DNA from: Candidatus Nanoarchaeia archaeon
GTDB lineage: Archaea; Nanobdellota; Nanobdellia; Woesearchaeales; DATDSP01
Direction: 5' to 3'
Assembly: GCA_035291205.1 (NCBI GenBank)
Contig: DATDSP010000082.1
Span: 1-28,495, forward strand
Length of the DNA: 28,495 nt
The notes beneath the pieces are model-generated. The model was given only the letters and a program-made list of their open reading frames with translations, was not told the DNA's origin and did not search any database. Positions within the stretch are counted from its first letter, which is position 1. Every line of letters starts with the position of its first letter. The position numbers were made by a program, and so were the translations under genes. Positions 25,138-25,790 of this stretch are shown here, one piece after another.

Positions 25138-25720
25138 GCGCATCAATTGTTTTCTCTAAATCCTTACATTCAAGAGAGGATGCAAGCTTTTTTCTGAGAT
25201 CCTGTCTGGGAACCAATTCTCCACTTACATACTGCGAGACAGCTTTTCTTGAAACTCCGAGTTGTTTAGAAAGCCATGACTGATTTCTGCCAAGTTCATT
25301 GAGTCTTGCTCTGATAAGTTCTCTGAATTCTTTTCTTTTTTTTGCAACTTCTGCTTTTTCATCGTATAGTTTTTCTTTTTCGTTGATGTAATCTTCCAAA
25401 GAAGTGTAAAATCCTTTGTTGAATCTTTTGTAGTCATGATATGAATCAAATCCCATTTCTTTAAGCTTTGTGTAGGTGTAGGTTGTTGAATATGAAACTC
25501 CAGCTAATTTGGCAATTTCGCTGACTCTTGTTCCTTTGTTGTACAGAGTGCATATTAATTCTATTTTATTAAAAACTGGCGGGTTTAATACCTCTGACTT
25601 TAGTCCGACAGTTTTTAATTCCAAAAACTCGCGATTAAGCGAGGAGCGTAAAACCGCAGGCTTTAGCCTGCGGATAGCTCCGAACAGCGAGTTTTTGTTA
25701 TCTTCTGAAATTTTTTTCAT
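25121..25720 (-). CDS. Double-HTH transcriptional regulator (N-terminal HTH, GF.SY..Y linker, C-terminal XRE/Cro HTH) carrying an in-frame palindromic insert
   Basis: VSEIAKLAGVSYSTTY and LNELGRNQSWLSKQLGVSRKAVSQYVSGELVP. A minus-strand TATA (TTTATAAT, 25748-25741) favours ATG 25720 over 25738. Confidence 0.8.
   Translation of the reverse strand: MKKISEDNKNSLFGAIRRLKPAVLRSSLNREFLELKTVGLKSEVLNPPVFNKIELICTLYNKGTRVSEIAKLAGVSYSTTYTYTKLKEMGFDSYHDYKRFNKGFYTSLEDYINEKEKLYDEKAEVAKKRKEFRELIRARLNELGRNQSWLSKQLGVSRKAVSQYVSGELVPRQDLRKKLASSLECKDLEKTIDALTKSS
25565..25697. mobile_element. Miniature tandem-hairpin palindromic element inserted in-frame in the HTH gene
   Basis: Perfect 11-bp IRs ATTAAAAACTG/CAGTTTTTAAT (25568-25578, 25609-25619) and CAAAAACTCGC/GCGAGTTTTTG (25622-25632, 25687-25697). 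Inner hairpins are GAC-TTTA-GTC and CCGCAGGC-TTTA-GCCTGCGG. Flanking TTTTATTA/TTTTGTTA are 129 bp apart. Confidence 0.65.
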
Positions 25721-25740
25721 GGCTTTTCTGAAAGGCATCT

Positions 25741-25790
25741 ATTATAAATTTATTTCTTTCCAGTAGTAACAAAAACAAAAGATTTAAATA
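25741..25790. promoter_or_regulatory. Back-to-back promoters for the HTH gene and the Tat lipoprotein gene
   Basis: Minus-strand TTTATAAT (25748-25741) and plus-strand AAAAGATTTAAATA (25777-25790), each 20-25 nt from an ATG, suggesting leaderless transcripts. Confidence 0.55.

Follow-up and report, generated by a model that had tools for sequence, protein, structure and literature searches.

A two-hairpin repeat inserted in frame in five genes of a Woesearchaeal archaeon: a probable archaeal counterpart of coding palindromic elements

Rickettsia provides the textbook oddity of selfish palindromic DNA that has spread in frame into housekeeping genes. The Rickettsia elements, known as RPE, were described as in-frame palindromic elements by Ogata et al. 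(2000), as summarised in PMC10969869. The element analysed here was found within a helix-turn-helix (HTH) regulator gene of a Candidatus Nanoarchaeia archaeon, in a window (the whole stretch of DNA that was analysed) of 28,495 nucleotides. It resembles the RPE in being a short (about 100-150 bp) palindromic repeat of a small genome that lies in frame in unrelated housekeeping genes, in the conserved peptide that it would add to proteins whose homologues are free of the insert, and in its modelled insertion points, which are outside the folded core. It differs in that the host is a DPANN archaeon and not a bacterium, in that its ends, its oriented TTAT and its left-end similarity point to mobility of the IS200/IS605 type, and in that only ~15% of its copies are genic, with an open frame that is specific to the version of this genome.

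The PATEs (palindrome-associated transposable elements) of Haloquadratum walsbyi derive from IS200/IS605 elements, and strain-specific insertions of PATEs have been reported (PMC3119063). As described there, PATEs are archaeal and transposase-free, with near-terminal palindromes and a short conserved flanking oligonucleotide, all of which apply to our element as well; they also form homogeneous high-copy families without target duplication (PMC3119063), the latter being a model assumption for the Woesearchaeal element. One-hairpin forms of 56 bp, which are present in our genome, are comparable to the ‘terminal-only’ PATEs of about 52-56 bp that the same text ascribes to deletion between the two palindromes (PMC3119063). 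In contrast, in-frame translated copies were not met in the available part of the Haloquadratum account (PMC3119063). Unlike the PATEs so described, our element has hairpin feet at 1-2 nt from TTAT, without a long linker, only its left end resembles an insertion sequence of the relatives, and its cognate transposase was not found in this genome.

The REP/REPIN (RAYT), Correia, ERIC and BOX repeats, none of which is archaeal to our knowledge, are likewise structured short repeats that spread in compact genomes. REPINs, however, are inverted pairs of REP, whereas the two related hairpins of our element are in direct order, and the Correia and ERIC repeats differ in having terminal inverted repeats with TA duplication. 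Some bacterial short repeats are located within genes or have promoter- or terminator-like ends (PMC10969869), and in a census of archaea, a Woesearchaeal genome was among those richest in MITEs (PMC11602168).

Boundaries, architecture and host gene of the insert

The original prediction held that a block of two hairpins lies wholly within the regulator ORF and is free of stop codons in the regulator frame, and the ORF list and the sequence indeed agree on both points (Table 1). The size and bounds of the block, in contrast, had to be revised. The 8-bp near-direct repeats that were thought to bound an element of 129 bp, namely TTTTATTA (25564-25571) and TTTTGTTA (25693-25700), are present, yet the true bounds are the two TTAT, 132 bp apart; judged from the sequence, the near-repeats are a chance overlap of the A/T-tract feet of the stems with the true TTAT...TTAT boundary. 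Only a net insert of 132 bp agrees at once with the conservation of a block of 136 bp, with the preserved reading frames, and with the gap of 44 columns in two homologues of the regulator. Keeping the frame in five genes requires a multiple of three, and 136 minus one TTAT is 132. By the multi-copy alignment and the 44-column gap, the 43 extra residues of the earlier version were also corrected to 44. Removal of the 132 bp in silico produced a regulator that reads MKKISEDKIELIC..., with one residue fewer than in the earlier version, and the homologues align over this junction.

Table 1. Features of the element and of the regulator gene, in coordinates of the window
Feature	Position	Strand	Details
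Conserved 136-bp block	25566..25701	+	Starts TTATTAAAAAC, ends GTTTTTGTTAT; the gene reads the reverse complement
Net insert	25570..25701	+	132 bp = 44 codons, giving residues 8-51 of the protein of 199 aa: NKNSLFGAIRRLKPAVLRSSLNREFLELKTVGLKSEVLNPPVFN; assumes insertion 3' of target TTAT
Left TTAT	25566..25569	+	Presumed target tetranucleotide; coding strand ATAA, read G-AT AA-A
Right-terminus TTAT	25698..25701	+	Invariant in all copies and all relatives
Hairpin 1	25568..25619	+	Outer stem 25568-25582 / 25605-25619; inverted repeat I2, 15 nt, 93% complementary
Hairpin 1 interior			Encloses GGGTTTAATACC and small hairpin GAC-TTTA-GTC
Hairpin 2	25622..25697	+	Outer stem 25622-25632 / 25687-25697 (I5, 11 nt, 100%)
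Hairpin 2 inner stems	25654-25662 / 25665-25673 (apical)		Middle stem GGAGC/GCTCC; apical stem I11, 9 nt, 100%
Two-HTH regulator gene	25121..25720	-	199 codons + stop; ATG 25720-25718, starts MKKISED
Longer ORF form	25121-25738	-	205 codons from upstream in-frame ATG at 25738
TATA-like box TTTATAAT	25741..25748	-	~25 nt 5' of ATG 25720; from the sequence itself

When folded as RNA, the segment 25555-25710 was predicted to form two adjacent hairpins at -51.6 kcal/mol, as compared to a mean of -31.2 for shuffled sequences (z = -5.6), none of the 200 shuffles being as stable. The regulator copy has one private change, a G to A at element position 119, which converts L to F in the peptide. A search of the curated RNA families of Rfam 15 gave a best match of 20.9 bits against a gathering score of 70, and this candidate origin was dismissed; a tRNA scan of the window found none. 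An assembly artefact at the regulator locus was ruled out by homology on both flanks and by Logan contigs of two independent metagenome runs, in which both flank-to-element junctions were crossed at flank depth.

The regulator contains an HTH_28/HTH_7 domain at residues 57-102 and an HTH_3 domain at residues 142-191, as detected by Pfam in the numbering of the 205-aa form. The public gene call for this protein, P0001, has the same MKKISED start as the shorter form. The TATA-like box was assigned on the basis of the spacing rule for archaeal promoters, and is likely the promoter of a leaderless regulator transcript. Given the start at ATG 25720, the element would begin 19 nt, i.e., six codons and one base, past the start codon; the regulator frame enters it at the second base of codon 7 and is stop-free throughout. 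Two homologues, P0007 (170 aa, 40% identity over the aligned portion) and an ORF of the relative G120 (186 aa), each align on both sides of the insert with an exact gap of 44 columns in its place; thus, as was anticipated in the original prediction, homologues span the junction without the extra segment. The N-termini of these homologues (MAKKLSEE and MAQRITDEE) align to MKKISED, and their following residues align to KIELICTLYNKG. Since they match the seven residues 5' of the insert, the start codon of the regulator is placed upstream of the element, as originally proposed, which excludes a true start downstream of it. Inspection of the regulator sequence showed that the stretch from the element to the first HTH is free of ATG, GTG and TTG codons in frame. 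There was no synteny between the P0007 locus and the window. A scan of metagenome contigs for close relatives of the regulator or an empty site returned fragments that were 38-42% identical at best, and among 200 other genomes of the order, only four had matches, all of them distant. In the structure model of the regulator, residues 50-199 had pLDDT values of 77-94, and residues 1-49 were below 50.

The repeat family and its transposition class

The genome assembly that was searched for further copies (780,641 bp in 91 contigs, 63% complete, 38% G+C) contains 31 copies of exactly 136 bp, which have 0-4 differences from the consensus and a mean pairwise identity of 98.3%. In addition, there are one copy of 133 bp, two one-hairpin forms of 56 bp, and several truncated forms, and 19 of the 182 contig ends stop inside the element. 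Beyond the shared ends TTATTAAAAAC and GTTTTTGTTAT, the flanks of the copies are unrelated to each other, except that the TTAT flank is found in the same orientation at every copy, the flank consensus being W-TTAT on the left and TTAT-TT on the right. Three copies in the gat gene cluster of contig C72 have private substitutions in common, which suggests local hopping. The locations of the copies relative to genes were also recorded. Four copies coincide precisely with a TAA stop codon, as seen when the element was removed in silico, and the terminus of the element re-creates the stop; it is to be noted that TTAT is the reverse complement of ATAA, the context of these stop-codon insertions. A copy in GatB, one codon 5' of the stop, replaces the last residue by a tail of 12 residues. 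At least six copies are found 2-40 nt upstream of a start codon, where a TATA-like box is created or made complete by the end of the element, GTTTTTAATAA. The remaining copies are in spacers, which are AT-rich.

The family extends to other genomes of the lineage. Of 60 genomes from the order, 8 had copies of 136-138 bp with 73-84% identity, and diverged copies are present in at least 10 other Woesearchaeota genomes overall, the MAGs ERP125453_co1_177 and BLK3-3.bin.38 being among the element-rich ones, while a pattern scan of 185,579 species genomes gave matches only in Woesearchaeota/Nanoarchaeota records. A number of the matching records carry the label ‘uncultured Methanosarcinales’, and in a number of them hairpin 2 contains additional nested hairpins. 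In an alignment of 15 copies, both sides had changed with the pairing kept in 13 of the 42 consensus base pairs of the two hairpins, and such compensatory changes indicate that the hairpins are under selection. The count of G-U pairs, about 16 on the plus strand versus 9 on the minus, did not decide which strand is the functional one. The element versions of the other genomes have not kept the open frame, and the idea that the whole family is built to be translated was therefore found to be unsupported. Other genomes also contain copies in small accessory genes that are likely disruptive, and one C-terminal replacement in an MGMT-like gene.

Several features of the element bear on its mode of transposition. 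Every copy has TTAT at its left flank and its right terminus, in one orientation, which fits the IS200/IS605 mode, in which integration is 3' of a fixed tetranucleotide and the right end of the element carries a similar one. Palindromes are sub-terminal at both ends, there are no long terminal inverted repeats, and the two hairpins fill the element. Because it is non-palindromic and always in the same orientation, the TTAT argues against symmetric cut-and-paste (DDE) transposition with target duplication; a classical MITE, with DDE transposition, terminal inverted repeats and target site duplication, was rejected on this ground, and also because inverted repetition of the ends is limited to the short A-tract/T-tract feet of the stems. 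Over its first 60 nt, the element is similar to the left ends of insertion sequences of the IS200 type in two relatives, G043 and G015, for which only 1 of 500 and 0 of 500 shuffled sequences scored equally, whereas the right ends are unlike. Both insertion sequences start after TTTATT and carry GGGTTTAATACC followed by a hairpin, like hairpin 1; the one in G043 is 544 bp long, of the IS200 type, and present there in two copies. The lead to this likeness of the left end was one of the matches, all of them short, that BLAST of the element versions returned against ten Y1 loci of relatives. Taken together, the TTAT flank of fixed orientation, the sub-terminal hairpins and the IS200-like left end suggest a PATE type derived from IS200/IS605, and it is with moderate confidence that we regard the element as an IS200/IS605-derived, non-autonomous, PATE-like element. 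The 63%-complete assembly yielded no Y1 (HUH) transposase (PF01797), and a match to a TnpB zinc-ribbon in the genome was below the cut-off. Among the relatives, a Y1 transposase was detected in 3 of the 8 that bear the element versus 11 of the 52 without it.

In-frame copies, phase bias and rival explanations

A protein search with the regulator surfaced unrelated proteins of the same genome that have only 44-45 residues in common with it, and in this manner, the other in-frame copies that had been envisaged were indeed recovered, in four further genes. These are GatC, with an in-frame insert after residue 9; Rpe (ribulose-phosphate 3-epimerase), with an insert after residue ~58 that is the 133-bp copy, its 3-bp deletion, the sole indel among the genic copies, keeping the frame; a DUF763 protein, split over two contig ends such that the upstream half covers Pfam positions 1-164 and the downstream half 163-319; and a PMT_2 glycosyltransferase, with an in-frame insert after residue 189. 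Insert-free homologues were checked for the regulator, Rpe and DUF763. No second copy of any of the five host genes was found in the 63%-complete assembly. A search of 1.84 billion representative proteins with the peptide returned 14 matches, nearly all of them from this organism, and this near absence of matches elsewhere indicates recent events and not protein segments that have been kept for long. A diverged copy was also seen in a CYTH-like host, P0003, for which no contig was traced.

The insert in Rpe was placed on a known fold. When Rpe was compared with its best PDB match, 4nu7, residues 4-56 and 108-257 aligned, and the 51 residues between them (57-107) faced only 6. The protein has 268 aa, as compared to 204-263 aa for all 120 homologues listed, none of which has the extra length, and its conserved positions D36, H114 and D227 are intact. 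Three contigs on record, including one of an ENA assembly, carry the same 133-bp allele, which lies shortly 3' of rpiB. A structure model built from an alignment of 54 sequences had a pTM of 0.82 and a pLDDT above 90 in the barrel, while the insert, with a pLDDT of 40-57, extended helix 2 and looped back to strand 3, an excursion that we take to be on the face of the TIM barrel away from the active site. Overall, the models of the regulator and of Rpe are compatible with the insert being a tolerated terminal or surface appendage.

The distribution of the copies over strand and phase was also analysed. The element has one open frame on each strand, which is TTA-TTA-AAA on the strand written TTAT... 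and AAC-AAA-AAC on the opposite strand. In a census of TTAT/ATAA sites in ORFs of at least 150 codons, divided into five strand-and-phase classes, the open class that is used by the copies (coding strand xAT-AAx) comprised 15.1% of the sites, the other open class 5.0%, and the three classes that bring a stop codon 79.9%. The five mid-gene copies without exception belong to the class of 15.1%, the probability of which is 0.151^5, or ~8e-5, and, conditional on orientation, 0.27^5, or ~0.0014. With the extended target AATAAA, the result was similar, the share of the class being 0.15, and 0.23 given orientation. Long ORFs contain 73% of the TTAT sites, yet only 5 of ~34 copies are mid-gene, and none of the insertions found in this genome puts a stop codon within a gene body. 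The phase bias and the scarcity of mid-gene copies together make up the pattern that is expected if stop-bringing insertions were purged and translatable ones tolerated; in contrast, loss of the insert at the RNA or DNA level ahead of translation would not be expected to leave such a bias.

These results lead us to consider it likely that the 132-bp element is translated in frame, contributing 44 extra residues, and that it is a non-autonomous IS200/IS605-type element of Woesearchaeota. The original view of an archaeal analogue of coding palindromic elements is thus supported by the multi-copy nature of the repeat, the insert-free homologues, the four additional hosts and the phase bias. In the course of events that we propose, transposition of the IS200/IS605 type (Y1/HUH) would most likely be both the source and the mobiliser of the two-hairpin element, and each insertion, 3' of TTAT and in one orientation, would lengthen the site by 132 bp without truly duplicating the target. 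In the regulator, the element would have landed in codon 7, on the strand and in the sole phase without a stop codon of the element; the gene would retain its own promoter and start codon, and the ribosome would read through, adding the 44 residues between the first seven residues and helix 1 of the N-terminal HTH. GatC, Rpe, the DUF763 protein and the PMT_2 glycosyltransferase would have followed the same course. The phase bias and the single-copy status of the host genes form the case for translation. It is to be noted that the stable hairpins 19 nt past the start codon of the regulator could hinder translation, a point against read-through.

It is unlikely that the insertion has instead inactivated the regulator and the other four genes, leaving very young pseudogenes whose frames are open by chance. 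The copies are only 0-4 bases from the consensus, and in copies that young (98% alike), an inactivated gene would show no decay yet; nonetheless, the presence of five of the five mid-gene copies in the 15% open class (P ~8e-5) is hard to explain without selection for read-through. Likewise, the family does break small genes in other genomes, and the insert is of low model confidence in the regulator and in Rpe, but GatC and Rpe are core genes without a second copy in the assembly, which at 63% completeness could miss intact second copies or a transposase, and Rpe has kept its conserved positions, with the lone genic indel being 3 bp long.

Two further explanations would yield a protein without the 44 residues, or a mixture of genes with and without them, and both had been raised as alternatives in the original prediction. 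Removal of the element from the mRNA before translation, by a bulge-helix-bulge motif and splicing endonuclease or by other RNA processing, is very improbable, even though the element RNA is strongly structured, with the structure conserved, and archaea do splice a few protein-coding transcripts with EndA. In a scan of four genic copies for this motif, which has two bulges of 3 nt and a 4-bp helix between them at the splice sites, none spanned the element, and weak motif matches occurred at about the frequency in shuffled sequences, with an excess of at most about twofold, seen in two of these copies. Different host genes could not have in common a motif formed by exon pairing, no Rfam family matched, and if the insert were removed, its phase would not matter, yet five of five copies are in the open phase, at a probability of ~0.001 given orientation. 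The second explanation, in which a Y1 transposase excises the element precisely as a reversible DNA switch, such that filled and empty alleles are mixed, has a mechanistic basis in that excision of the IS200/IS605 type reseals the donor precisely; the element has features of this class, and strain-specific insertions are reported for PATEs (PMC3119063). Four metagenome runs from groundwater and soil (2015-2016) were screened for the empty junction, and their Logan contigs, which break in the repeat, contained no empty-site contig or skip joint, at a depth of 7-9x and with the proviso that contigs drop rare variants. The locus was found in no RNA run. In addition, the transposase was not found in this genome, and an open phase would be unnecessary. 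Thus, while excision is mechanistically possible, we regard such a switch as improbable.

Meaning for the genomes of Woesearchaeota

No earlier description of this element family, or of in-frame copies in archaea, was found in the literature searched. The family adds an archaeal member to a class already known, that of short palindromic repeats found in frame within genes, and it probably descends from IS200/IS605. It also has practical consequences. At 19 contig ends, the assembly is broken by the element, which also creates chimeric ‘proteins’ in public databases, where unrelated proteins match through the 44-residue peptide; in Woesearchaeota genomes, it can lead to wrong annotation of starts, stops and domain boundaries.

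A broader reading, which we consider a long shot, is that the family has been moulded so as to do no harm at any site that it enters. Its open frame would serve as a tolerated linker of 44 residues, its ends would re-create TAA stops and TATA-like boxes, its hairpins and U-tracts may end transcripts, and a Y1 transposase acting in trans could excise it, all of which would make it a reversible, genome-wide modifier of protein termini, loops and expression. If this were true, the element would be more than junk in tiny DPANN genomes.

Regardless of that reading, the spread known from Rickettsia is now also seen in a reduced DPANN genome, where it includes GatC and Rpe, and the strand-and-phase filter offers a direct readout of selection. 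If the link to IS200/IS605 is true, the family would provide a simple natural system in which single-strand transposition is set against coding sequence.

Shortened, composite and tandem forms

Departures from the full-length, 136-bp two-hairpin element were found both in the genome of the same organism (G000) and in its relatives. The one-hairpin and truncated forms of G000 (Table) apparently arose by deletion between two similar stem feet, and relative G056 contained at least 14 matches to hairpin 1, the left hairpin, alone. Longer composites were present in the Woesearchaeota MAG BLK3-3.bin.38 (L055, L064, L067, L070, L073 and other extracted loci), in which additional hairpins were nested within hairpin 2 and the conserved right terminus GCTCCGAGCGGCGAGTTTTTGTTAT was retained. 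In metagenome run X1, one contig linked window position 25703 back to 25566, and two tandem copies must therefore exist somewhere in this metagenome; the summed word depth across the element (window 25566-25703) was ~250 times that of the flanks.

Proposed relatives of the element and a second repeat family

The compact IS200-type insertion sequences of two relatives, proposed as kin of the element, carried a Y1 transposase as their sole gene. Their two ends bore identical hairpins, and TTTATT occurred both in the left flank and at the right terminus. The element family itself interrupted an MGMT-like gene in another Woesearchaeota genome, replacing its last 26 residues, and seems to have broken two small accessory genes in other genomes of this group. 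This Woesearchaeota-specific repeat was also present in MAGs titled 'uncultured Methanosarcinales archaeon' (CAYJTR01, CAZHJH01, CAYHXI01, CAZGZA01), one of which matched G008, a genome of the window's order; the title is probably wrong for all four.

Another hairpin repeat family, unrelated to the 136-bp element, was observed at window 20952-21119. It is ~123-168 bp long, with the outer stem GGAAAACCTAA / TTAGGTTTTC, and has ~25 copies in the genome at 94-98% identity, those on contigs C17, C24 and C87 adjoining or overlapping copies of the first family.

Element copies and compact IS200-type insertion sequences by position (L, extracted locus; C, contig of G000)
Feature	Genome	Position	Remarks
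Element at interrupted or apparently broken gene	other Woesearchaeota	L090:3467-3603
Element at interrupted or apparently broken gene	other Woesearchaeota	L066:621-756
Element at interrupted or apparently broken gene	other Woesearchaeota	L080
Element, gat cluster	G000	C72, inside GatC	in frame
Element, gat cluster	G000	C72, 2-8 nt upstream of GatB start
Element, gat cluster	G000	C72, one codon before GatB stop	yields 12-residue tail ITKTRCS.LSAG
One-hairpin form	G000	C18:4906-4961	56 bp
One-hairpin form	G000	C50:17942-17997	56 bp
Truncated form	G000	C68:2258-2332	75 bp
Compact IS200-type sequence	G043	L125:1922-2465; L126:1922-2465	544 bp; two identical copies
Compact IS200-type sequence	G015	L111, ~1400-2000

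Copies near start and stop codons

The three copies in the gat cluster (L012 and neighbours) had private substitutions in common. Four further copies (C58, C63, C68, C74) were positioned exactly at a TAA stop codon, which the element re-created. At other sites in G000 (C6:12077, C18:4906, C45:4256, C55:2321, C29 and C30), a start codon followed 19-40 nt downstream of the element end. Because the end GTTTTTAATAA of these upstream copies resembles an archaeal TATA box, the element may preserve or supply the promoters of the genes that follow.
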